From: Marivirga sp. ANT-B6
GTDB taxonomy: Bacteria; Bacteroidota; Bacteroidia; Cytophagales; Cyclobacteriaceae
Length of the DNA stretch: 55,927 bases
Reading direction: 5' to 3'
NCBI GenBank assembly: GCA_001683905.1
Contig: LXQK01000131.1
Coordinates: 5,560 to 61,486 of the forward strand
This document shows positions 1 to 13,100 of the stretch, in pieces. Below the pieces are notes generated by a model. It had not been told where the DNA came from. It was given only the letters and a program-made list of their open reading frames with translations, and searched no databases. The position numbers were made by a program, and so were the translations under genes. Position 1 is the stretch's first letter, and each line of letters begins with the position of its first letter.

Positions 1-26
1 GCTTATACTTAATCCATGAAGCAATA

Positions 27-76
27 ATACGTATAAATACGTATAAAAAAAATAAATATGTCAAAATAATTACGTA
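27..76. promoter_or_regulatory. Tandem ATACGTAT palindromic boxes upstream of cobA (27-34 and 37-44, 10-bp register) plus a TACGTA core at 71-76
   Basis: Read directly: AATACGTATAAATACGTATAA. The same 21-mer, with 2 mismatches, recurs upstream of nasA at 4840-4860. The third core lies at 71-76, and the cobA ATG is at 122. Confidence 0.5.
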
Positions 77-121
77 CTATTGTTTTCATATTGATAAAAT
101 CGAACCCTAAATATATCCCTA

Positions 122-895
122 ATGGAAGTAGACAAAATAGCAAAAGTAACTTTAGTAGGAGCAGGACCAGGAGCAGCAGACCTAATAACAGTAAGGGGTT
201 TAAAAATTTTACAAGAGGCGGATGTTATCCTTTATGATGCTTTAATAAGCGAAGCGCTTTTAGCGCAATTAGACGAAGCAATCCTTAAAGTGTACGTAGG
301 TAAACGCTGTGGTTTGCATTCGTTTGCCCAAGATGAAATTAACGACCTTATTGTAAAATATGCATTTGAATATGGACATGTGGTTCGATTAAAAGGAGGA
401 GATCCTTTTGTATTTGGCAGGGCGAATGAGGAGATTGAATTTGTGGAATCATTTGGCATTCCTGTAAGCGTAGTTCCAGGGATTTCAAGTTCAATAGCAG
501 TGCCGTCCAGCCAGGGAATACCCATGACCAAAAGAGGTGTAAGCAGTAGTTTTTGGGTAATGACAGCCACAAAACGGGATGGGTCATTCTCTCAAGATTT
601 GAAATATGCGGCTAGTTCTTCAACCACTATGGTTATATTAATGGGCGTGCGAAAATTAGGGGAGATAGCCCTTGAGGTAATTAAATATAGGAGTTCAATG
701 ACTCCTATTGCGGTAATTCAAAACGGCACTACAGAAAAGGAATCCTGTGTTGTAGCTACGCTAGCGACTATTCATAATTATATAGATGCTATAACGATCG
801 AAGAGCCTGGAATAATTGTAATTGGTGATGTTGTTGCGGAACATCCGTCCTTTTTTAAAGAAGAGGTACAACGTGTGCTACACGCTGGCTTCTAA
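122..895 (+). CDS. cobA: Uroporphyrinogen-III C-methyltransferase (SUMT, first step of the siroheme branch)
   Basis: 257-aa ORF with the N-terminal signature VTLVGAGPGAADLITVRGLKILQEADVILYDAL and the GGDPFVFGR motif typical of tetrapyrrole methylases. It has no CysG dehydrogenase/chelatase N-domain. Confidence 0.9.
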   Translation: MEVDKIAKVTLVGAGPGAADLITVRGLKILQEADVILYDALISEALLAQLDEAILKVYVGKRCGLHSFAQDEINDLIVKYAFEYGHVVRLKGGDPFVFGRANEEIEFVESFGIPVSVVPGISSSIAVPSSQGIPMTKRGVSSSFWVMTATKRDGSFSQDLKYAASSSTTMVILMGVRKLGEIALEVIKYRSSMTPIAVIQNGTTEKESCVVATLATIHNYIDAITIEEPGIIVIGDVVAEHPSFFKEEVQRVLHAGF

Positions 896-926
896 TTTTT
901 TATAGTCAACAATTAAAAATCATAAC

Positions 927-1099
927 TACGTAGTAATCCATATTTTATCTGCTTATCCAAGCACTTGTGTTTCATATTTCATAAAATATACTGGAAAAAA
1001 TTTAAAATTATTTATTTTTTCGACCACTGAAAAAGTATATCGATAGATATATACGTAGTTTAATATAAATAAAAAACAAAAACTAAGTAGGAATACGTA
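927..1099. promoter_or_regulatory. Three TACGTA boxes in the narK upstream region (cores 927-932, 1052-1057, 1094-1099)
   Basis: Read directly: CTACGTAG, ATACGTAG and ATACGTAG, in a very AT-rich 250-bp intergenic region. The last two are 42 bp apart, about 4 helical turns. Confidence 0.45.
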
Positions 1100-1147
1100 G
1101 ATTATGTAGTAGATTTGAAAATCATTAATATCAAAACTATCTACATT

Positions 1148-2563
1148 ATGGAAAATCTTTCTAAAAAATCGACCACGTTAAAGTTGTCCAATTTTAAGAG
1201 TATGCCTATCCGTACCTTCTGGATTACATCAATTGCTTTCTTTATCTGTTTTTTTGCCTGGTTCGGCATTGTGCCTTTTATGCCCGATGTGGTAAAAGAT
1301 CTTGGCCTTACCCCGGATCAAAAATGGAACTCTATCATTTTAGCGGTAACCGGGACGGTATTTGCCAGGTTGCTTATAGGGAAACTTTGCGATAGATACG
1401 GGCCAAGATTATGTTATACCTTTTTGCTCATATTGGGAGCTATACCTGTTATCCTAATTGGATTTGTTCAAACACCTATGCAATTTTTGTTCTGTAGATT
1501 TTTTATTGGATTTATAGGTGCCTCCTTTGTTATTACCCAATTCCACACTTCTATCATGTTCGCACCAAATATTGTAGGAACTGCGAATGCCACCTCTGCG
1601 GGTTGGGGAAACTTGGGTGGTGGAGCCAACCGTTTGGGAATGCCATTGATTGCCGCTGCCGTGGTTAGTTTTGGTGTAGCTGATGAAATTGCATGGCGTT
1701 ATTCCATGATTATTGCGGGTATTATTGCCATGTTGATGGGTGTGGTTTACTATTACTTTACCCAAGATACCCCAGAAGGTAACTTTGCACAGTTAAAAAA
1801 AGAAGGTAAAATGCCCAATTTAAAAAAAGACGAGGAATCTTTCTTGAGTGTATTGAAGGATTACCGTGTTTGGATTTTATTTATCGTATATGCTGCTTGT
1901 TTTGGTATTGAACTAACGGTATATGGCACTATGGATGATTACTTGCAGAATACCTTTGGTCTGTCACGATCCGCCGCTGGAAACTTGGTGCTTTCTTTTG
2001 CCTTGATGAACATTTTTGCTCGTACATTGGGGGGTTATTTCGGCGACCTATTTGGCAAATTAAAAGGACTTTATGGCAGGGTTATTTTTTTAACGGTAAT
2101 TCTTGCTGCAGAAGGCGCAATGCTATCCATTTTCTCTATCACTACAAGCTTTGTTCTAGGAATCATCTTCTTAATCGCATTTAGCTTAACGGTTCAAATG
2201 GCAGAAGGTGCAACATTTTCCGTGGTTCCTTTTATCAATAAAAAAGCGATCGGTTCTATTTCGGGTATTGTCGGCGCGGGTGGAAATGTTGGGGCGTTCC
2301 TGGCGGCAATGTTCTTAAAATCAAAATCTGCTGTAGCAGAGACTAGTGCTTTGGCGGCCAATTCCAATTTAGGTGAAGCGGCTATGAAAGCAGCACAGTC
2401 AGCGGCAGCTGCAAATGCCGTATCTAGTGGGTATTTCATCATTGGTGGGTTTGTCGTTATTAGCGCATTGACTACGCTGGCCATTAAATTTTCTACCGCA
2501 GATGAAAACGCGGTGCAAGCGGAAATGAAGGGTGTATTGGCAATTTCTGGATCCGGCAAATAA
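1148..2563 (+). CDS. narK: MFS nitrate/nitrite transporter (NNP family, NarK/NasA-type)
   Basis: Multi-TM ORF with the NNP signature AGWGNLGGGANRLGMP and a second G-rich motif, GIVGAGGNVGAF. The ORF-track start at 1115 is TTG, so I prefer the ATG at 1148 (MENLSKK). Confidence 0.9.
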   Translation: MENLSKKSTTLKLSNFKSMPIRTFWITSIAFFICFFAWFGIVPFMPDVVKDLGLTPDQKWNSIILAVTGTVFARLLIGKLCDRYGPRLCYTFLLILGAIPVILIGFVQTPMQFLFCRFFIGFIGASFVITQFHTSIMFAPNIVGTANATSAGWGNLGGGANRLGMPLIAAAVVSFGVADEIAWRYSMIIAGIIAMLMGVVYYYFTQDTPEGNFAQLKKEGKMPNLKKDEESFLSVLKDYRVWILFIVYAACFGIELTVYGTMDDYLQNTFGLSRSAAGNLVLSFALMNIFARTLGGYFGDLFGKLKGLYGRVIFLTVILAAEGAMLSIFSITTSFVLGIIFLIAFSLTVQMAEGATFSVVPFINKKAIGSISGIVGAGGNVGAFLAAMFLKSKSAVAETSALAANSNLGEAAMKAAQSAAAANAVSSGYFIIGGFVVISALTTLAIKFSTADENAVQAEMKGVLAISGSGK

Positions 2564-2668
2564 GCGCACTTATCAAAATTCAAATCTAATAAATACGATG
2601 AACAGTTTAATAGTATCATTGATGTGCATGCCTGAGCAATTTCCAAAAAATCTAAACTGAATACACCA

Positions 2669-3952
2669 ATGAAAAAATACTTTTTAATTCTAACAATAAG
2701 CTTGTTAAGCGCGCATGCGACATTTTCACAGTTCTCGCTAGATGGTCAGTTTAGGCCAAGAGCAGAGTACAGACATGGTTACGGGAGTTTGATACCTGAT
2801 CGCGCAGATGCCGGTTTTGCAATCTCAACCCGTGTCCGTTTAAATGCCACGTATACGATTGATTCCTATCAATTTTATTTGAGTTTTCAAGATATAATGG
2901 TTTGGGGAGAGAACAGACAGCTTCTACCTGATGACCAAAATGATTCCTTTGCAGTTTTTGAAGCGTGGGCGAACATCAACCTGGGGAAAGGATGGTCCGC
3001 CAAATTGGGAAGACAGGTAATTTCCTATGACGACGAGCGTATATTTGGAGGCTTGGATTGGGCGCAGCAAGGCAGAAACCACGATGCGGGCCTTTTAAAA
3101 TACAAGATAGAAAAATTTTTATTGGATATTGGACTTGCCTTTAGTCAGGATTTTGATGACCCATCCGGGTTTCAGTCTATTGGAACCGCCTATACGACGA
3201 CTGGATTTTTTACTTATAAAACCATGCAATATCTATATGCTAAACAGCAATGGACAGATTTTTCAGGAAGTATCCTGGCATTGAACAATGGGTTTCAAAA
3301 CTTTGACACCTTGGGCGAAGCTGATGGAACCAGTAATCTACAGACGATTGGAACGCATTTGGAGTATAAAAAGGGAAGTTTTAATACAAATGCAAATGTA
3401 TTCTTGCAGACTGGTGAACGGCAAAATAGTTTGAAAGTGGGCGGTGCCTACCTATTGGGACTTGAACTGGGATATAAAGCGAACGATAAGTTGAATTTTG
3501 GTTTAGGAGCGGAAATTATAAGTGGAAATAAAGCGCGTACTACGGATAAAACCGAAGCGTTCTTCCCTCTTTATGGCACCAATCATAAATTCAACGGATT
3601 TATGGATTATTTCTACGTCGGCAACCACGCCAATTCTGTTGGATTGACTGATATTCACGCAAGTGCCAATTTTACCTTGGGTGAAAAATCAAGCTTGCTC
3701 GTCAAAGTATTAAATTTTAGCGGACAACAGGAATTAGCGAGCAGTGAAAAATTATTGGGTACGGAAGTGGATCTGGTATTTTCCAAAAGTTTCAATGGCT
3801 ATGGTCTGGCTATAGGGTATTCCCAAATGTTCGCCGCAGAGGGTATGTATGAGTTAAAGGGCATCGCTGAAGATGCAGCTGCAAGTAACCAGAATTGGGC
3901 ATGGGTGATGCTGACCATTAAGCCGAATTTTTTGAATACGGCAAAGGATTAA
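2669..3952 (+). CDS. Outer-membrane porin, alginate-export-like beta-barrel, probably an anion (nitrate/nitrite) channel
   Basis: Signal peptide MKKYFLILTISLLSAHATFSQ. The sequence has alternating amphipathic beta-strand character with many aromatic girdle residues. The family assignment comes from overall resemblance and from cluster context. Confidence 0.65.
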   Translation: MKKYFLILTISLLSAHATFSQFSLDGQFRPRAEYRHGYGSLIPDRADAGFAISTRVRLNATYTIDSYQFYLSFQDIMVWGENRQLLPDDQNDSFAVFEAWANINLGKGWSAKLGRQVISYDDERIFGGLDWAQQGRNHDAGLLKYKIEKFLLDIGLAFSQDFDDPSGFQSIGTAYTTTGFFTYKTMQYLYAKQQWTDFSGSILALNNGFQNFDTLGEADGTSNLQTIGTHLEYKKGSFNTNANVFLQTGERQNSLKVGGAYLLGLELGYKANDKLNFGLGAEIISGNKARTTDKTEAFFPLYGTNHKFNGFMDYFYVGNHANSVGLTDIHASANFTLGEKSSLLVKVLNFSGQQELASSEKLLGTEVDLVFSKSFNGYGLAIGYSQMFAAEGMYELKGIAEDAAASNQNWAWVMLTIKPNFLNTAKD

Positions 3953-4048
3953 ATTTTTTGTAAAGATGCTTCGATGGGGTGCCACCCGTACTACATAAGT
4001 ATGGCAGCGCCTTTTTCGTTTTTAAAATTATATGTAATTTAGCACAGT

Positions 4049-4054
4049 TACGTA
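4049..4054. promoter_or_regulatory. Single TACGTA box (TTACGTATAA) 15 bp upstream of the response-regulator ATG
   Basis: Read directly. It has the same core as the boxes upstream of cobA, narK and nasA. Confidence 0.35.
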
Positions 4055-4068
4055 TAATTACCTATATT

Positions 4069-4740
4069 ATGAGTGAAATCACTAAAATTGTTTTGGCAGA
4101 TGACCATGCTTTGGTCAGGGATGGAATAAGGGCTTTATTAGAATCCGAAAGGGATTTGGAAGTCATTGGAGAGGTTTCCAATGGCGAGGAAGCTATCGTG
4201 ATGGTTGAAAAGCTGCATCCAGATCTTCTAATAATTGATATTAGGATGCCGGTCATGAACGGTATTGAAGCTGTTGAAGCACTTCACAATAACAATTCTA
4301 ATGTAAAAGTCATCATACTTTCCATGCATGATTCAGAAGAGTATATCTTAAAATCAATTAGCGCAGGAGCAAACGGTTATTTGTTGAAGGATACGGATAA
4401 GACTGAGTTTATAAAAGCGATACATATAGTACGTGATGGTGGCAAATACTTCAGTGGGGATATTAGCAATGTACTTGTAAACAATATTTTAGGCTTGAAG
4501 TTGCCGCTAGTCAACCACGAGAAACAGAGTACACCCAGTGAAAATATTTTTGATTTAACCAATAAAGAACTGCAAATATTAGAATTGGTTCTTTCCGGAT
4601 TGACCAATCAACAGATTTCAGAAAAATTAAAGAACAGTAAGCGTACCATAGAAACCCACCGGTTCAACCTCATGCGTAAAATGGATGTTAAAAATTTAAT
4701 TGACCTTTCTAAAAAAGCGCAAAAACATCAATTGGTTTAG
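4069..4740 (+). CDS. NarL/FixJ (LuxR-type HTH) two-component response regulator with no cognate kinase in the window
   Basis: Receiver domain features: IVLADDHALVRDG and LLIIDIRMPVMNG (phospho-acceptor Asp). C-terminal LuxR HTH: LTNKELQILELVLSGLTNQQISEKLKNSKRTIETHR. The start is taken at ATG 4069 (MSEITKIV) rather than the upstream alternative start at 3979. Confidence 0.9.
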   Translation: MSEITKIVLADDHALVRDGIRALLESERDLEVIGEVSNGEEAIVMVEKLHPDLLIIDIRMPVMNGIEAVEALHNNNSNVKVIILSMHDSEEYILKSISAGANGYLLKDTDKTEFIKAIHIVRDGGKYFSGDISNVLVNNILGLKLPLVNHEKQSTPSENIFDLTNKELQILELVLSGLTNQQISEKLKNSKRTIETHRFNLMRKMDVKNLIDLSKKAQKHQLV

Positions 4741-4839
4741 AATACCTGTCTTTAAATGAGGTCTTAGTTCATTAATCGCATGCATTATAGCACATAATTC
4801 ATACTCATAACAAATTACCCTAATCTTTATCACAACTTA

Positions 4840-4863
4840 AATACGTATTAATACGTATTTTTG
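4840..4863. promoter_or_regulatory. Tandem ATACGTAT boxes (4841-4848, 4851-4858) overlapping a TAnnTTTG -7-like box (4856-4863) upstream of nasA
   Basis: Read directly: AATACGTATTAATACGTATTTTTG. The Bacteroidota -7 consensus is TAnnTTTG, and the nasA ATG is at 4909. Confidence 0.5.
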
Positions 4864-4908
4864 TATTTTGCAGTATTGAAATTAAAGTTGCTCGTCAGCA
4901 CAAGTAAA

Positions 4909-7900
4909 ATGCAAAATAAAAAAACACATAAAACAATTTGTTCCTATTGTGGCGTGGGCTGTGGTATGCTGGTAAATGTGGATGCAAAAGGAACAATATC
5001 AGTTGATGGTAATCCAGATTATCCTTCCAATAAGGGTATGTTATGTACCAAGGGCCGTAATTTAAATTATGTTGCCCAAGATACCTCGGATCGCATATTG
5101 TATCCAGAAATGCGATGGAGCCGAAATCACCCTTTACAACGTGTTAGTTGGGATACGGCCTATGAACGTGCTGCGGCAGTATTTAAAAGTATCATCGCCA
5201 AACACGGTCCGGATAGTGTAGCATTTTATGTGTCCGGTCAATGCTTAACGGAGGAATATTACCTGGTCAACAAACTGACCAAAGGTTTTATAGGCACCAA
5301 TAACATAGACACTAATTCACGATTATGTATGAGTTCTGCGGTCGCGGGCTATAAAAAAACTTTGGGTGAGGACTCCGTTCCTATATCCTATGAAGATATA
5401 GAGTTGGCGGACTGTTTTTTGATTGCGGGGGCAAACCCTGCCTGGTGTCATCCTATACTTTACCGCAGATTGGAAAAGCATAAGGAACAAAATCCTCAAG
5501 TAAAAATAATCGTTGTAGATCCCCGTAAAACCCAAACCTGTGCAGGGGCGGATTTACACTTGCAGATTTTGCCGGGTACCGATGTTATTCTTTTCAACGC
5601 CATTGCCCGTTGGTTAATCGAAAAAAGAAAAATAGACACTTCTTTTATTAAAAAACATACGACAAATTACAACGCGTGTAAGGAAACGGCCTTTTCATTA
5701 TCAATTAGGGAAGCTGCAAAAAAATGTGGCATTGAGGTCAGTGCTATTCGTAAGGCGGCAGAATTTATAGGAAATGCCAAAAAGTTTATAAGCATGTGGA
5801 CCATGGGGCTCAATCAAAGTGTGATCGGGGTCGCAAAAAATGTGTCGCTCATAAATCTTTCATTGTTGACTGGCCAGATCGGTAAACCTGGCTGTGGTCC
5901 TTTTTCATTAACCGGACAGCCCAATGCCATGGGTGGTCGTGAAGTGGGGGGGATGGCAAATTTGTTGGCGGCCCATAAAGATTTAGGAAACCCAGCACAT
6001 AGAAAGGAAGTATCGGATTTTTGGGGAGGTGGAGAGATTAAGGCGGAACCAGGTTACACTGCTACGGAAATGTTTGATGCGTTAGAAAATGGAAAGCTAA
6101 AGGCTATCTGGATTATTTGTACCAATCCGGCCGTGAGTATGCCCAACGTCCATAAGGTTGAAAAAGCATTGAAGAACGCCAAGTTTGTAGTGGTACAGGA
6201 CATCTCGCATAATTCTGAAACTACAAAGTTTGCAGATTTGTTATTGCCCGCCGCGGGATGGTTAGAAAAAGAGGGCACCATGACCAACTCAGAAAGGCGT
6301 ATCAGTCATTTGCCCAAAGTAATTGACCCTCCAGGGGAAGCCATGCCAGATGCGGAAATATTATGGCGTTTTGCCCAGGCTATGGGCTATCATGGTTTTG
6401 ACTATAAAAATGCCAGTGAGGTATATGATGAGCATTGTTTGCTTACCAAAGGCACGGAGATAGATATCTCTGGACTTTCCTATGACCGACTTATCAGTGA
6501 GGGTAGTTTTCAATGGCCCGTTCCCCACAATACCCATATGGGAACTCCGCGACTATTTACGGACTTTCAATTTTTTACCGACGATAAAAAAGCGCATTTT
6601 AATGCGCCATCCACCCTATACAATAAGTCTGAAGAAACTGATTACGAGTATTCGTTGATCTTAAATACGGGCAGGGTCAGGGACCAATGGCATACCCGCA
6701 CCAAAACTGGCAAGGTAAAGCGTTTGCTTACCCATATTCCAGAGCCTTATTTGGAAATGAACAGGGTCGATGCCTATTTGAGAAATCTTAAGGAGGGTGA
6801 TATTGCAGTCGTTAAAAGTAGAAGGGGACAGGTACAGGTAAAAGTGCAGGTTAACTTTGATATCCGTAAATCTGTTGTGTTTCTACCCATGCATTGGGGC
6901 AAGGTATTGAATAATGATTTTGGAAGGGCCAATAATCTCACCAGCGAATTGGTAGATCCCGTGTCAAAAGAACCTGATTTTAAATATTGTGCTGTTGAGG
7001 TAACCAAATTTGTTAAGCAAAAACAGAAAATCATCATTATTGGTGCCGGGGCGGCAGCGTATCGATTTATTCAATCGTATCGAGAAAAGAATAGAAGGGA
7101 CCCGCTACATGTTTTTTCCAAGGAAGAAAATCCATTTTATAATCGAGTACTCCTACCTGACTATGTAAGTGATGAACTTTCATGGGATGCGCTGGAAAAG
7201 TTGAAAAAGGGGGAGTTGAACAAGCTGTCGGTAGTATTGCATTCCGGTATTGGGATTGATAAGATTGATGCCCATAAAAAGACGGTAACCGATTCAAACG
7301 GAACGGAACATTCGTATGATCTTTTGATTATGGCCACGGGTAGTAGGGCTTATGTGCCTAGTGATGTACAGATACAATTACCAGGTCGTTTTACGATGCG
7401 GGAAAAGGGAGATGCGGATAAGTTAAAGAGCTATTTAGCAGAAACAGGCCTTCCTGCAAGGGAACAAAATGTGGTCATTGTTGGCGGTGGATTATTGGGC
7501 TTGGAACTTGCAGCCTCACTGAAAAAAATAGATGTGAATATTAGCATTATTCAACGGGCACCAAAATTAATGGAACGACAACTGGATAGCGTTGCAAGCC
7601 GTTTGTTGGCCGAGGATGTTTTGGAACGGGGCATAAATCTTTACTTTGACAACGAGGTTAGTACCGTTTTTGAAGATAGGACGCGAAAACATACCCTTTT
7701 GATTAACCTAAAAACCGGGCGAACTATTCAATGTAACGCCATAGTCTATGCTATCGGTACCAGACCCAACATAGAATTGGCGAAACAGACCAATTTGAAT
7801 ACCCATAGAGGGGTGGTGGTCAATTCATATTTACAATCCAGCGACCCAACTATTTTTGCGTTGGGAGAAATTGCGGAATATAAAAATGCATTGTTCGGTA

Positions 7901-8439
7901 TTACTTCCGCAGCGGAACAACAGGCAGATATTGCAGCAAATTACATCCTTGGTGATTTTAGTAGTATCTATAGCGGTTCTGTGTTGATGAACATTCTAAA
8001 GTTTGAAAACCTGGACCTTTGTAGTATCGGGATGGTCAATGCGCCCATTGGAGATTCGTCATATGAGGAAATTATCCTGATGGATGTCAATAAACGTTTT
8101 TACAAAAAATGTATCGTTAAGGATGACACCTTAAAAGGCGCCATTTTAATGGGCGATAAAAATGAGTTTGCAGAATTTAAAAGATTGATCGAAGAAGAGA
8201 TAGAACTCTCTGAAAAAAGAAACGAACTCTTACGTGGGGCTTCGACCTCTGTGCCACTAAAAGGGAAAATAGTTTGCTCGTGTAGTCAGGTGGGAGAAGG
8301 TAATATTTTGGACGCCATAAATGGGGGCTGCACCAATTTCAACAAACTCTGCTCAGAAACAGGTGCGGGATTGGGCTGTGGAAGCTGCAAGCCTGAAATT
8401 AAGGAACTACTAAAAAACCATCTGGTTTTGGCCAATTAA
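4909..8439 (+). CDS. nasA: Assimilatory nitrate reductase catalytic subunit (molybdopterin) fused to a NirB-N-terminal-like FAD/NAD(P)H reductase with a BFD-type [2Fe-2S] domain
   Basis: N-terminal CSYCGVGCGM...LCTKG 4Fe-4S motif, followed by a molybdopterin-oxidoreductase body up to about nt 7020. Then come IIIIGAGAAAYRF (FAD), VVIVGGGLLGLELA (NAD) and a C-terminal CSCSQVGEGNILDAI...GCGSCKPE BFD-like 2Fe-2S domain. The ATG at 4909 (MQNKKTHK) is preferred over the TTG at 4861. Confidence 0.9.
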   Translation: MQNKKTHKTICSYCGVGCGMLVNVDAKGTISVDGNPDYPSNKGMLCTKGRNLNYVAQDTSDRILYPEMRWSRNHPLQRVSWDTAYERAAAVFKSIIAKHGPDSVAFYVSGQCLTEEYYLVNKLTKGFIGTNNIDTNSRLCMSSAVAGYKKTLGEDSVPISYEDIELADCFLIAGANPAWCHPILYRRLEKHKEQNPQVKIIVVDPRKTQTCAGADLHLQILPGTDVILFNAIARWLIEKRKIDTSFIKKHTTNYNACKETAFSLSIREAAKKCGIEVSAIRKAAEFIGNAKKFISMWTMGLNQSVIGVAKNVSLINLSLLTGQIGKPGCGPFSLTGQPNAMGGREVGGMANLLAAHKDLGNPAHRKEVSDFWGGGEIKAEPGYTATEMFDALENGKLKAIWIICTNPAVSMPNVHKVEKALKNAKFVVVQDISHNSETTKFADLLLPAAGWLEKEGTMTNSERRISHLPKVIDPPGEAMPDAEILWRFAQAMGYHGFDYKNASEVYDEHCLLTKGTEIDISGLSYDRLISEGSFQWPVPHNTHMGTPRLFTDFQFFTDDKKAHFNAPSTLYNKSEETDYEYSLILNTGRVRDQWHTRTKTGKVKRLLTHIPEPYLEMNRVDAYLRNLKEGDIAVVKSRRGQVQVKVQVNFDIRKSVVFLPMHWGKVLNNDFGRANNLTSELVDPVSKEPDFKYCAVEVTKFVKQKQKIIIIGAGAAAYRFIQSYREKNRRDPLHVFSKEENPFYNRVLLPDYVSDELSWDALEKLKKGELNKLSVVLHSGIGIDKIDAHKKTVTDSNGTEHSYDLLIMATGSRAYVPSDVQIQLPGRFTMREKGDADKLKSYLAETGLPAREQNVVIVGGGLLGLELAASLKKIDVNISIIQRAPKLMERQLDSVASRLLAEDVLERGINLYFDNEVSTVFEDRTRKHTLLINLKTGRTIQCNAIVYAIGTRPNIELAKQTNLNTHRGVVVNSYLQSSDPTIFALGEIAEYKNALFGITSAAEQQADIAANYILGDFSSIYSGSVLMNILKFENLDLCSIGMVNAPIGDSSYEEIILMDVNKRFYKKCIVKDDTLKGAILMGDKNEFAEFKRLIEEEIELSEKRNELLRGASTSVPLKGKIVCSCSQVGEGNILDAINGGCTNFNKLCSETGAGLGCGSCKPEIKELLKNHLVLAN

Positions 8440-8449
8440 AAGAATAGGT

Positions 8450-9886
8450 ATGAATGATGACCTTCATAGAATATTAATTAAAGGCGGTGTTACGTCGCCT
8501 GGGGAACTTAAGGATATAATCACCATGCTAGAGGCTGCGGGTTTAAGCACAGTATTTTTTGGCTCCAGACAGGATATTTTATTTCCTCTAAAAGATGCCA
8601 AGGAAGAACAGCTGGAAGGTATCTCCAAATTGAATACGGATATTATTGGTAACCGTTCCTATCAAAATATTGTAAGCTCCTACGTTTCAGCAGATATTTT
8701 TGATATGACGTATTGGTTGAAAGGATCTACCTATCTCTATATTTTGGAAGGATTCGATTTTTCACCAAAGCTAAAAATCAATATTACGGACCCTAAACAA
8801 CGTTTGGTTCCTATTTTTAATGGCAATCTTAATTTTATTGCTTCTGACAGTGAGGATTATTGGTATCTGAATATAAAGCTGCCGCATTGGAAAACTTCGG
8901 CCTTTTATCCGGTACTTATTTATAGTTGGGATATCAATATCGTTTCAAAACGTATCGAAGAAATCCACGAAGATATTCAGGATGTGGAGGAACTTTTTTT
9001 TGTGATGAACAAGCACTTGGAGACTAACAATAAGACCATGGAAAAGGAATTGAAGATACCTTTTCAAACCTTTCCCTACTACGAAGGAATGAACAGATTG
9101 GGAACGGACTCCTATTGGCTAGGACTTTATTGGCGAAACAATAAATACGACCTTCGTTTTTTAAAGGATTTTTGTGGATTTTGTTTGGACAATAGTATTG
9201 GTAAAATATGTGTTACCCCTTGGAAATCTTTTATCGTCAAAGGAATCAAAACATCCAGCAGACCAGAATTGGAACGCTTCTTAGGGAAACGAGGTATAAA
9301 TGTTCGGCATTCGCAATTGGAAATGAACTGGCACGTTCCTGTGGATGATGGCGAGGCATTGGAGCTTAAGAAATTCTTGGTCAGTAGTTTTGACCAAAAT
9401 GATATTAGCACCTATGGTCTTACCTTTGGTATCAGTAATGAAATGGGCAACCGATCACATTTTGCTTCGGTGGTTATTGAAAAAAATAGTTTGCCAACGC
9501 TGGTAAAGGATTTTGATGTTCGCCCGTCGTACAACGTCCTCTATTTTGAGAACTTTGACCCCAACACCCAGAACTATACTACCTATGCTCAAGATATCGA
9601 TAAGATTGAATTACCTGGGTTGTTGATGGAGTTGAGTAAAATGTATTTTGATCAATTGGGAAGGGCAACAGATTCAGAAAAAATTACCACAAAAGAGGTA
9701 GTTGACACAAAACACCGTGTCTATCAATGTCAAGATTGCTTTACGGTTTATGATGAGGTATTGGGGGATGGAGTGGCGGGTATTCATCCCGGCACAAAAT
9801 TCGGTGTCCTGCCAGACACTTATTCTTGCCCAGTTTGCGATGGCCCTAAAAGCAACTTTTCAGAAACCTTTTTGCTTATCGAATAA
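8450..9886 (+). CDS. Nitrite/sulfite-reductase-fold protein (two ferredoxin-like half domains) lacking the siroheme/[4Fe-4S] cysteine tetrad, with a C-terminal rubredoxin domain
   Basis: The N-terminus ILIKGGVTSPGELKDIITMLEAAGLSTVFFGSRQDILFPL fits the NIR_SIR ferredoxin-like half-domain pattern. A second copy is YWLGLYWRNNKYDLRFLKDFCGFCLDNSIGKICVTPWKSFIVKGI. The C-terminus YQCQDC...YSCPVCDGPK is a rubredoxin Cx2C...CPxCG motif. There are only 7 Cys in total, 4 of them in the rubredoxin. The gene starts 10 nt after the nasA stop. Confidence 0.7.
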   Translation: MNDDLHRILIKGGVTSPGELKDIITMLEAAGLSTVFFGSRQDILFPLKDAKEEQLEGISKLNTDIIGNRSYQNIVSSYVSADIFDMTYWLKGSTYLYILEGFDFSPKLKINITDPKQRLVPIFNGNLNFIASDSEDYWYLNIKLPHWKTSAFYPVLIYSWDINIVSKRIEEIHEDIQDVEELFFVMNKHLETNNKTMEKELKIPFQTFPYYEGMNRLGTDSYWLGLYWRNNKYDLRFLKDFCGFCLDNSIGKICVTPWKSFIVKGIKTSSRPELERFLGKRGINVRHSQLEMNWHVPVDDGEALELKKFLVSSFDQNDISTYGLTFGISNEMGNRSHFASVVIEKNSLPTLVKDFDVRPSYNVLYFENFDPNTQNYTTYAQDIDKIELPGLLMELSKMYFDQLGRATDSEKITTKEVVDTKHRVYQCQDCFTVYDEVLGDGVAGIHPGTKFGVLPDTYSCPVCDGPKSNFSETFLLIE

Positions 9887-10036
9887 TTATAATATTTTTC
9901 GTCTCTGCCAACTTTGATTTTTAAATCTGAAACAAGTTCATTATTCGGTAATAACACATTTGAAATACTAGCGCTTCCATACTTTCAGCATTTATCTTTC
10001 CCTACTTTAATATATTTTATGATAAAAGGAGCTTAA

Positions 10037-10069
10037 GATAGAAGGAATCATCCTAATAATCCTTCTATC
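10037..10069. terminator. Possible hairpin between convergent genes (GATAGAAGG-N15-CCTTCTATC)
   Basis: Perfect 9-bp inverted repeat read directly, with no clean T-tract on either side. Confidence 0.3.
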
Positions 10070-10113
10070 GTAATGTCCTGAATCCATCACGCAATTTGAA
10101 TTGACCATAAGCG

Positions 10114-13100
10114 CTACTGCGCCCCTGCATGGCAGGTACAACCTGGTGTAGAAAAGCTGCCTGTACTTTCATGCCATGGAAAAGCCTGGCTTGTTTTATT
10201 CTTTTCCCAATAAAAACTTCCTCGTTCTTTAGGCCTGTTGCCAATTTCATGCATTGTCCCGGCGTCATATAGCCGTCCATTCACCATGGTGTAGATGATG
10301 CTTTCCGAATTTCTAATGTCGTCGAGCGGATTATTCTCCAGGACGAGGAGATCGGCCAGTTTTCCTACTTCCAGCGAGCCAATTTCTGCACCCATGCCAA
10401 TGTAATTCGCACCATTGATGGTAGCAGCCTGCAGTGCTTCCATATTGGTCATGCCACCCATTTGTAATAGCCATAGCTCCCAATGGGCACCAATGCCCTG
10501 CATCTGCCCGTGGGCACCCAGGTTCACCTTAACGCCTACATCGGCAAGCGCTTTGGCGGTTTGAGAGACCAGAACAGGGCCCTGCTGATATTCTTCTTCA
10601 GGCACCATGGTTCTATGGCGGGATCTTGCATCTACGATATGCCGCGGCGTAAAATTCAGTAGCCTTTCGTTTTCCCAAACATTGGTTTTTTCGTAGAAAT
10701 AATATTCTCCGTTTATTCCCCCGTAATTGACAATCAGCGTAGGTGTGTAGCCAGTATTGCTGTTGCCCCACAGGGTAAAGATATCTTTATAAACCGGGGC
10801 AACGGGAATATTATGCTCGATTCCTGTGTGCCCGTCTACAACCATACTCATATTATGAAAAAAAGTGCTGCCACCTTCCGGTACTACATTCATGCCAAGC
10901 TCTTTGGCAGCTTGCATGATCTGTTGCCGCTGCTCTCGGCGCGGCTGGTTATAGCTTTTTACGGAAGTCGCACCAAAAGCTTTCGTTCGTCGTAGGGCAG
11001 ATCGGGCATCTTCTAGGCTATTGACTTCGGCTTTAAAATCTCCTTCGGCACCGTATAGGATGATTCCTGTAGAAAATAACCTTGGCCCAACACTTTGTCC
11101 TGCTTTGATAAGTTCTGAAATGCCAAATACAGTTTCGCTCAAAGCAGAGGGGTCATGCGCGGTGGTTACACCAAAAGCGAGGTTGGCATATGCCGGCCAA
11201 TGTTTTTGTGGCGTAAGACCATATCGGAAAGCACCAATATGCGCATGAGCATCTACGATGCCTGGCATAATCGTTTTCCCCGCCACATCATAGACTTTAG
11301 CGCCTTTGGGGACTTCTACCTCAGCGGCATTACCGAGGGCAACAATCTTGTTTTCGCGGATTACAATCGTTCCATTTTCAATTACCTGACCGCCATTCAT
11401 TGTTATAATCCGGGCATTGGTAAAGGCAATAACACCTTGGGGAACATCTGCTTTCATCTCGAGGCCAATCGTTATCCCTGTTTCAGTAACGGGAGCAACA
11501 GAATCCGGTGAATTGGGGAGAAAGGTAAATTTCTCAGAAACCTGGTTGGTATAATATGTATCCCCTAATGTCCAGTTGATTTGCTGGCTATTATTCGACC
11601 AATGAAGGTTCATACCAGCATCTTTGGTGATTTGCGCTACTGGAACGGTTTTAGTCTTTCCATCCAGATCGATAGTCTTGCCGGTAGTGACCAACGGCGC
11701 TATATATCCCTGGTGTAGCTGGGTAAACGCTATCCATCTGTTATCGGGGCTAGGCACCAGCCGGTTTGCATTTTTGGACTGAACATGTACTCGCTCGTCT
11801 TTTCCATTCAGATCGACACTCTTCAGTTTTTTGGTAAGGTCACCAAAAAACATCCCGCCTGTCTGAAAAAAGACCCTATCGTCATCTTTACTAAATACAG
11901 GAAATTCACCTTCATCAACTACTTTCTTTACACTTTCGCCAGAAGCACTCATCGTGTAAATGCCTGGTTCCTTGGCAAAGGTCCTTCCCTGGTCGGTATT
12001 GCCACTCTCGCGCGTAAATACGATCATCCGGCCGTCTTGCGATGAGGAAGGATTTCGATAAATCCCTTTCTCCTTAGTGAGGGATACGGGATTTCCTCCT
12101 GATAAAGCTACCTTCTTAATTGCCCCCATGCTGGCATCACTCCACGTTACAAAGATGATATCTTTTCCATTATTTGTAAAAGCCGGCTCAAACTCAAATT
12201 CCACGCCCTGGGTAAGTCGTTGAGGTTTTCCGTTCGGAAGGCTCTTCTTATACAAGTATCCTACAGCATTAAAAACCAGGGTTTTCCCATCGGGCGATGT
12301 TACCGCATGACGAATCACTTTCGGATTAAATGTCTCCGAAAATACCTGGTGCTTTGCCCGGTGGGTCTCAGCGACTTGGATGGTATTATTTACTTCAAAA
12401 GGTATATCCTGCGCCTTTAGTGTGTTTATATTGATCCGCTTAATCTTTCCAGCGACCCATATGACGATTTCCTCGCTGCCAGGCAGCCAGGAAAATCCCG
12501 GATAAACACCAAAAATAGCCCAGGCCTCCTGTTGATCTTTGCTTAGCTGATCGAATACAGGCCATTCTTCGCCCGTCTTCAGGTCATGAATATAAAGGAC
12601 GGATTTGGTCCTGACGCGTTTGACAAAAGCAAGCTTATTCCCATCGCGAGACACCTGCGGGCGGGCCGCGCCACCCGGTCCACCTGTAATCGTCTCGGTC
12701 GCCCCGGTTTTGAATTCATACCGCTTGATTACATAGATCTGCTTGTTAGGATCTTTATTATACTGAAACATGCCACCTGGGTACATATCTTCGCTATAAT
12801 AGAGGTAGCGCCCATCAGGAGAAACTGACGGTTCATTCACATCCTGTTGATCGTTTTTTCTTTCCGTAAGCTGAAGGCCTTCGCTGCCGGCTATGTGATA
12901 TTGCCACATTTCCCCTGCGCCAAGAGAGCGCCCGGAAGTAAAATGCTTTCTTGCAATAATGGAATTCCCATCTATCGTCCAAACTGCATTGTTCAAAAGT
13001 CTGAATGTTTCCTTGGTTAGCTGCTTTGGGTCGGAACCATCGATATTCATGATCCAGATATTATCACCACCTCCTGCATCGCTGGTGAAGGCAATTTTTT

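Follow-up and report, generated by a model that had tools for sequence, protein, structure and literature searches.

A predicted single-polypeptide assimilatory nitrate reductase with a built-in NAD(P)H electron-donor module in Marivirga and other Bacteroidota

The genome of Marivirga sp. ANT-B6 (Bacteroidota; Cyclobacteriaceae) contains a gene in which a nitrate reductase is fused to a flavoprotein. The gene lies in a 55,927-nucleotide stretch of DNA, referred to as the window, whose base 1 corresponds to base 5560 of contig LXQK01000131.1 (C37) in assembly GCA_001683905.1. At positions 4909–8439 of the plus strand, a single uninterrupted open reading frame (ORF) of 1176 amino acids joins a NasA-type molybdoenzyme to an FAD/NAD(P)H reductase and a BFD-type [2Fe-2S] domain. 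We propose, with a probability of about 80%, that the product of this gene is a cytoplasmic assimilatory nitrate reductase with an NAD(P)H electron-donor module on the same polypeptide. The proposal draws on the domains of the protein, its ligands and their conservation, its phylogeny, and the context of its gene, and extends from these, by prediction, to its catalytic activity, electron path, and nucleotide preference.

The longest reading frame at this locus spans 4861–8439 on the plus strand and opens with TTG at 4861. The ATG at 4909, which coincides with the N-terminus of homologous proteins, was chosen as the start because the resulting 1176 amino acids match the lengths of the homologs (1174–1177 amino acids). 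Pfam and NCBIfam matches together with the homologs confirm the order NasA, FAD/NAD(P)H reductase, and BFD that the original prediction had read from the translation. The protein begins with a [4Fe-4S] domain (Pfam PF04879, Molybdop_Fe4S4; amino acids 5–52; window 4921–5064), in which a Cx2Cx3C motif at residues 11–18 together with C46 supplies the ligands C11, C14, C18, and C46. The catalytic body for the molybdenum-bis(molybdopterin guanine dinucleotide) (Mo-bisMGD) cofactor follows at 5092–6993 and consists of the Molybdopterin (amino acids 62–489; E = 6e-76) and Molydop_binding (amino acids 583–695; E = 6.7e-30) domains. The reductase module (amino acids 707–1098; window 7027–8202), recognized by Pfam, NCBIfam, and motifs, contains Pyr_redox_2 (amino acids 707–1004; E = 2e-47) and Rubredoxin_C (amino acids 1027–1098), with Rossmann motifs for FAD (GAGAAA at residue 712) and NAD(P)H (GGGLLG at residue 859). 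The BFD-type [2Fe-2S] domain (Fer2_BFD; amino acids 1121–1169; window 8269–8415; E = 6e-12) displays the ligand pattern C1123-x-C1125 ... C1157-x2-C1160. Alignment of fused homologs places the junction between the two halves at KFVKQKQ (amino acids 700–706; window 7006–7026), in agreement with a boundary predicted near nucleotide 7020. Only 6–7 residues connect the catalytic half (amino acids 1–699) to the flavin module.

The catalytic half (amino acids 5–700) aligns over its whole length to a nitrate reductase of known structure, NapA of D. desulfuricans (2jim_A), with an E-value of 3.9e-147, and Cys140-Met141 stands opposite the Cys-Met of NapA. Cys-Met is the Mo-ligand pair of Nap and Nas enzymes, a clade of the DMSO reductase family; formate dehydrogenases (FdhH) have Sec/Cys-His at this position. 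No Tat (twin-arginine) leader was found on the fused protein, whose [4Fe-4S] motif begins at residue 11. The NirB model TIGR02374 aligns amino acids 708–1172 with model positions 1–469 of 794, which comprise the flavoprotein/BFD half of NirB, as had been noted from the domain order; the score of 312.5 bits lies below the cut-off of 578.35. The module also matches NF003437, a model of the rubredoxin-reductase/NorW type (E = 3.4e-48). Neither NIR_SIR nor NIR_SIR_ferr was found in the fused protein by Pfam or NCBIfam, and the Pfam domains Flavodoxin_1, FAD_binding_1, and NAD_binding_1 are absent. A scan of positions 4600–10200 for sigma-70 promoters and terminators yielded no more sites than shuffled sequences did, a result without weight here, since Bacteroidota promoters differ from that consensus.

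The fusion is genuine, of long standing, and widespread among Bacteroidota, and it is not an assembly artefact, because the same full-length frame recurs in records from the window's own family, the phylum, the Flavobacteriaceae, and plasmids. More than 100 protein clusters from Maribacter, Zobellia, Cellulophaga, Arenibacter, and other Flavobacteriaceae share 80–88% identity with the fused protein and agree with it in length and domains; at NCBI, most of them bear the name 'nitrate reductase'. In the window's own family, 50 of 151 genomes (one of them, G111, unpublished) encode a full-length, single-frame fused reductase, and the genomes that do so also encode a separate NirB of about 840 amino acids. 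A phylum-wide sample contains the fusion in 28 of 401 genomes from at least eight families. Among species-representative genomes, all 80 Flavobacteriaceae loci are full length, and the best of them, from Maribacter, reach 88–90% identity. The gene is also present on four Bacteroidota plasmids, from Chondrinema litorale, Persicobacter, Spirosoma oryzicola, and Hymenobacter volaticus. In an alignment of 20 fused homologs from eight families, the ligand cysteines of the [4Fe-4S] and BFD domains are invariant, the Mo-ligand cysteine is kept except in two divergent metagenome rows (Ile), and the junction contains no indels. A stop or frameshift near nucleotide 7020 had been named as the sign of an artificial fusion that other strains might reveal; instead, the frame is unbroken across the junction in more than 100 genomes. 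A search for shorter, stand-alone relatives of the module returned almost exclusively pieces of fused genes truncated at contig ends. The reductase also occurs as a short 'solo' ORF in three cases (P0361, P0489, and P0528); these nest within the fused clade, P0528 as sister to a fused gene (100/100), and their placement indicates that they are secondary splits, frameshifts, or fragments. At one further locus (L046; genome G487, family f55), the match to the fused reductase passes from one frame to another near residue 150, owing to a frameshift or sequencing error; the gene is full length in other respects.

The domain arrangement suggests a mechanism in which NAD(P)H would reduce the FAD of the pyridine-nucleotide-disulfide-type module (amino acids 707–1098). 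From there, the BFD [2Fe-2S] cluster at the C-terminus would relay electrons singly to the [4Fe-4S] cluster at the N-terminus, which would pass them to the Mo-bisMGD site at Cys140, where nitrate would be converted to nitrite. The last transfer could occur within one chain or across a dimer. A separate, neighboring NirBD would carry nitrite on to ammonium. Support for a role of the module in the reductase itself comes from the basal fused lineages, which are represented by three f21 genomes and one f55 genome, all at least 98% complete. With the query used, no homolog of the gene that lies directly downstream in the window (the partner gene) was found anywhere in these four genomes. Because the module is kept in these partnerless lineages and its junction is fixed, it is likely to serve the reductase to which it is joined. 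The description of the protein as a self-sufficient NAD(P)H nitrate reductase in the original prediction is a reasonable one.

The module differs from NirB at a position expected to influence the choice of nucleotide. In all true NirB proteins sampled, the second beta strand of the NAD(P)H-binding fold ends in Val-Val/Ile-Glu. The same strand ends in Ile-Ile/Val-Gln-Arg/Leu/Lys in the class-level fused clade, to which the present protein belongs with its Gln882-Arg883 (window 7552–7557); Gln followed by Arg is also the state of most fused homologs, while the basal f21 and f55 fusions retain Glu at that site. As a rule for Rossmann folds, loss of the acidic residue together with an adjacent Arg usually permits binding of NADPH. 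The presence of Gln882-Arg883 in place of the Glu of NirB leads us to predict that the fused enzyme probably accepts NADPH or both nucleotides.

Several observations weigh against the proposal that the protein is an NAD(P)H-dependent nitrate reductase. Curated equivalog models score under their cut-offs: the NasC model NF047855, which covers amino acids 2–699, gives 528 versus 1100 bits, and the NasA model NF041323 gives 492 versus 1000 bits. These two models describe Bacillus and haloarchaeal types, so the catalytic half of the fused enzyme constitutes a distinct subfamily. The top NCBIfam match of the fused protein is Fdh-alpha (589; also below its cut-off of 666), and relatives carry the JGI label 'ferredoxin-nitrate reductase'. 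In sequence, some 1100 residues separate the BFD domain from the [4Fe-4S] domain, and no biochemical data were found for any member of the fused-enzyme family. Finally, pairing with the partner gene is near-obligate in class-level relatives, and the flavin module may also, or mainly, serve the partner.

The Fdh-alpha match and the few solo ORFs are what could be cited in favor of a reading in which two genes were joined by an assembly or frameshift error, or in which the enzyme acts on a substrate other than nitrate, as a formate dehydrogenase would. The probability of such a reading is negligible. The same frame occurs in well over 100 independent genomes, complete chromosomes and plasmids among them, the solos are nested inside the fused clade, and both the Cys-Met pair of the active site and the nitrate gene context oppose a formate dehydrogenase. 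For the artefact, the genome survey amounts to a refutation.

The JGI label raises a different question, namely whether the module feeds the Mo site at all. Cyanobacterial NarB and Azotobacter NasA receive electrons from ferredoxin or flavodoxin, and the catalytic half of the fused protein could be supplied in the same way while the module performs another job. The wide separation of the [2Fe-2S] and [4Fe-4S] domains in sequence would fit such an arrangement. We regard it as unlikely, since an indel-free junction and invariant BFD cysteines have been retained across at least eight families and partnerless lineages still retain the module. Moreover, relatives of the catalytic half from outside the phylum either adjoin genes for NasC-like reductases (Ralstonia, 49% identity) or bear a BFD domain of their own (P0249).

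We favor a built-in donor for the nitrate reductase, and its origin was examined in a maximum-likelihood tree of 54 reductase modules. The tree included fused modules from eight Bacteroidota families and metagenomes; the N-terminal halves of NirB from Bacteroidota, E. coli, Klebsiella, Ralstonia, Sinorhizobium, Deinococcus, Priestia, Paenibacillus, and Streptantibioticus; NasB and NasC of Klebsiella; NasC-like proteins of Ralstonia and Streptantibioticus; a NasB-like protein of Paenibacillus; and two outgroups. Fused modules of the Bacteroidota type are recovered as a single clade (ultrafast bootstrap 100, SH-aLRT 97). All NirB, NasC, and NasB-like modules fall in the other group (88/87), within which true NirB (100/100) and Bacteroidota NirB (100/100) are each well defined; Klebsiella NasC, the Ralstonia NasC-like protein, and the Paenibacillus NasB-like protein lie with this NirB group, apart from the fused clade. 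When the fused modules were grouped with those of Bacteroidota NirB, an approximately unbiased (AU) test rejected the arrangement (p = 5.6e-5). Identity between the module and the NirB of the same genome is 28%, and the best matches of the module outside the phylum in plasmid records are NirB proteins with no more than 33.5% identity. Domain searches and the tree agree with the assignment of the module to the NirB/NasB flavoprotein family, and they indicate that it is an old paralog within a NirB/NasB/NasC superfamily and not a piece of the resident NirB.

This placement bears on the proposal, made in the original prediction, that the fused gene and its downstream neighbor together represent NasA and a split, rewired NirB. 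Under this scheme, a cut at the boundary between the BFD and siroheme domains would have divided either an ancestral fusion of NasA with NirB or the resident NirB, and the partner gene would be a degenerate C-terminal half of NirB that gained a rubredoxin. Such a history would account for the fit of the domain order to the first 469 positions of the NirB model and for the weak alignment of N-terminal and internal stretches of the partner with NIR_SIR_ferr. A metagenome contig even encodes a NasA-NirB-NirD mega-fusion (P0246, 1737 amino acids). However, the module of P0246 is nested within true NirB (100/100), at a wide remove from the fused clade, and the partner family contains two ferredoxin-like repeats where NirB contains one, with an hhalign probability of 7% against NirB C-terminal halves. 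A complete NirBD is encoded next door, and the separate clade, the AU rejection, the 28% identity, and the partnerless basal lineages indicate that the module is not a recently detached half of NirB. A recent split of NirB is largely refuted by these findings, and we consider the split-and-rewired scheme as a whole improbable.

Fusion of NasA to reductases has happened repeatedly. The metagenomic NasA + FAD + BFD proteins P0247, P0245, and P0243 (Candidatus Dadabacteria) fall outside the Bacteroidota fused clade, and a single origin of P0247 with that clade is disfavored (AU p = 0.018, for a group chosen post hoc). Other forms among relatives of the catalytic half are NasA + BFD, NasA + diflavin, NasA + NirA, and NasA + NirB + NirD. 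Among them are P0293 (1272 amino acids), which joins NasA to a two-repeat, NirA-type siroheme reductase, and P0298 and P0305 (1360–1400 amino acids), which join NasA to a flavodoxin/FAD/NAD diflavin module of the NasN type. P0246 combines NasA with a complete NirB (two BFD domains, NIR_SIR_ferr, and NIR_SIR) and the Rieske domain of NirD. On paper, this protein could convert nitrate to ammonium in one chain; it forms a single-member cluster from a lone 7 kb JGI metagenome contig and may be an artefact of assembly or gene calling.

The partner gene (window 8450–9886, plus strand), identified as an ORF with a Pfam match, begins 10 nucleotides past the stop of the fused reductase gene and encodes 478 amino acids with an uncharacterized N-terminal domain and a C-terminal rubredoxin (amino acids 425–470; E = 2.8e-15). 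The rubredoxin had been anticipated from the translation, together with a start in the NIR_SIR_ferr half-domain. The rubredoxin is evident; the NIR_SIR_ferr start is plausible, with weak support from a local hhalign profile match between amino acids 7–50 and the corresponding region of NirB (probability 7%). A second weak resemblance, to Pfam NIR_SIR_ferr at amino acids 238–278 (E = 1.4e-4), is below cut-off, and the profile similarity of the partner family to the C-terminal half of NirB is marginal.

The co-occurrence of the fusion and the rubredoxin protein, which the original prediction had singled out for a survey, proved close at the class level and incomplete beyond it. The partner is present in 49 of the 50 family genomes with a fused reductase, the exception being a genome whose reductase is cut at a contig end, and it lies directly downstream in all 80 Flavobacteriaceae loci; the f21 and f55 genomes have the fusion without it. 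Viewed from the partner, homologs were found in 52 genomes of the family sample, of which 49 contain the full fused reductase, two contain reductase fragments, and one contains none. The last of these, G114, has a partner copy (contig C20, 12881–14089) that is truncated, without the rubredoxin part, and interrupted by a stop. Decay of the partner after loss of the reductase would be expected to leave such a copy. The partner therefore depends on the fusion, and the fusion is independent of the partner, which appears to be an accessory recruited later than the fusion itself.

It is tempting to speculate that, in most Bacteroidia, the fused reductase and its rubredoxin-tailed partner of nitrite-reductase fold work as one device. 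The FAD/[2Fe-2S] module would be a hub with two outlets, supplying nitrate reduction in cis and the rubredoxin of the partner in trans. The partner might act on a reactive product or by-product of nitrate reduction, namely nitrite, NO, or hydroxylamine, by capturing or detoxifying it; alternatively, it might gate the hand-over to NirBD. A precedent exists in the narK-bjgb-flp-nasC cluster of Bradyrhizobium, where the flavoprotein Flp feeds both the nitrate reductase NasC and the NO-handling globin Bjgb (PMC4724949). The rubredoxin-reductase/NorW character of the module, with its NF003437 match and Rubredoxin_C domain, points in the same direction, as does the tie between partner and fused reductase in the family sample (49 complete, two fragmentary, and one decayed without it), in which the partner usually lies directly downstream. 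On the other side, the fusion functions without a partner in the f21 and f55 genomes. A shared hub is therefore possible but doubtful; if true, it would constitute an undescribed safety or channeling layer of bacterial nitrate assimilation.

The fused reductase and its partner close a cluster of nitrate genes. Upstream on the plus strand of the window lie cobA (122–895; TIGR01469, 278 bits, above cut-off), which encodes a uroporphyrinogen-III C-methyltransferase whose assigned role is siroheme synthesis for NirB; a NarK-family nitrate/nitrite transporter of the major facilitator superfamily (1115–2563; TIGR00886, 300.9 bits, just below the cut-off of 311.7); an outer-membrane porin of the Alginate_exp type (2669–3952), conserved in the cluster; and a NarL-type response regulator (3979–4740), which is not an orphan, its kinase being encoded upstream of the window. 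The order is thus cobA, narK, porin, regulator, fused reductase, and rubredoxin-tailed partner. On the minus strand just upstream of the window, contig C37 encodes a complete nirB, nirD, and a NarX/NarQ-like histidine kinase. The kinase (C37:14–1864, locus L001, minus strand) has PilJ-type sensor, PAS, HisKA_3, and HATPase domains and adjoins nirD. NirB scores 955.8 bits, above the TIGR02374 cut-off, and has both NIR_SIR and NIR_SIR_ferr. A run of 132 N at C37:5427–5558 covers approximately the first 45 codons of nirB, including the FAD-binding motif. The run directly precedes the window. The apparent 5' truncation of nirB is an effect of the masking or gap, and the gene is not broken. An annotated plasmid of Chondrinema litorale carries the same gene set plus moaCB and a siroheme ferrochelatase. 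Elsewhere, locus L002 (contig C113, 11380–13650, minus strand) encodes a second NapA-like molybdoenzyme that is 38–42% identical to the catalytic half of the fused protein. It is split into overlapping ORFs of 288 and 486 amino acids, which may reflect a frameshift or sequencing error, and lies beside a multihaem cytochrome of the NapC/NirT type.

The whole nitrate island of about 15 kb (window 1–9886 plus C37:1–5559) looks horizontally acquired from a Maribacter- or Zobellia-like donor, because its NirB and reductase are Flavobacteriaceae-like while rpoB fits the window's own family. In rpoB, identity is 83–86% to the own family and 72% to G498, a genome of family f5. The fused reductase is 60–71% identical to its counterparts in the own family, 85% to that of G498, and 88–90% to those of Maribacter; for NirB, the values are 57–63% in the own family and 87% in G498. 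G498 contains a colinear block of nirB followed by cobA, narK, porin, regulator, reductase, and rubredoxin genes, and plasmids of four other Bacteroidota also carry this cluster. Synteny with Maribacter loci ends right after the rubredoxin gene, and the genes beyond the island are closer to the window's own family than to Flavobacteriaceae. Misbinning of the contig as the cause of the Maribacter-like genes is unlikely, given that its composition is typical of the genome and the flanking genes fit the own family.

Textbooks distinguish three kinds of bacterial assimilatory nitrate reductase: monomers that depend on ferredoxin or flavodoxin, heterodimers that depend on NADH, and, since 2020, the diflavin enzyme NasN of actinobacteria. 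Bacteroidota of sea and soil, major consumers of algal organic matter that also participate in nitrate uptake, appear to rely on a fourth kind: a single 130-kDa polypeptide along which electrons would travel all the way from NAD(P)H to molybdenum. Full-text literature searches found no paper describing this fused enzyme. The fusion is widely annotated, apparently uncharacterized, and mechanistically unsurprising, a logical variant that specialists would not find startling. It explains why such proteins are variously annotated as 'nitrate reductase', 'NAD(P)H-nitrite reductase', or 'ferredoxin-nitrate reductase', a mixture that can distort metagenomic counts of nasA and nirB. The predicted nucleotide switch from Glu to Gln-Arg is testable, and the enzyme recommends itself for structural work, which would give the first structure of any NAD(P)H-linked Nas.

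The closest functional counterparts are heterodimers. The NADH nitrate reductase of Klebsiella consists of NasA, which holds the catalytic domain and a C-terminal [2Fe-2S] domain, and NasC, an FAD diaphorase; that of B. subtilis consists of NasC and NasB. Like these cytoplasmic enzymes, the fused protein is predicted to combine FAD, [2Fe-2S], [4Fe-4S], and Mo-bisMGD, is encoded in a nitrate operon with nirBD, and uses a flavoprotein of the same superfamily. Unlike them, it is one chain in the order catalytic domain, FAD, [2Fe-2S]. Its module is 27–31% identical to Klebsiella NasC, Ralstonia NasC-like, and Paenibacillus NasB-like proteins, forms a separate clade, has the FAD motif GAGAAA where NasC/NasB types have GNGM(A/V)G, and has Gln-Arg after the second beta strand of the NAD(P)H fold. 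To judge from its architecture, the fused enzyme unites covalently what the Klebsiella and Bacillus enzymes keep on two subunits. NirB shares the order Pyr_redox_2, Rubredoxin_C, and BFD in its N-terminal 470 residues; unlike NirB, the fused protein is without a siroheme/[4Fe-4S] domain, and its module lies outside the NirB clade. In Bradyrhizobium (Flp) and Paracoccus (NasB/NasG/NasC), as proposed here, a flavoprotein of the nas operon passes electrons from NAD(P)H to the nitrate reductase. There, the donors are separate proteins, and the Bradyrhizobium accessory is a globin, whereas here the accessory is fused to rubredoxin. NasN of Mycolicibacterium smegmatis is described as an NADPH nitrate reductase that is monomeric and has a diflavin module fused to it (PMC7816997, which cites Tan et al. 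2020). NasN resembles the Bacteroidota protein in being a single self-sufficient polypeptide that joins a NasA-type half to an NAD(P)H-oxidizing module. Its module is CysJ-like (Flavodoxin_1, FAD_binding_1, and NAD_binding_1) and has no [2Fe-2S] domain, whereas the Bacteroidota enzyme has a flavoprotein of the N-terminal NirB type followed by BFD. NasN and the Bacteroidota fusion are independent fusions.

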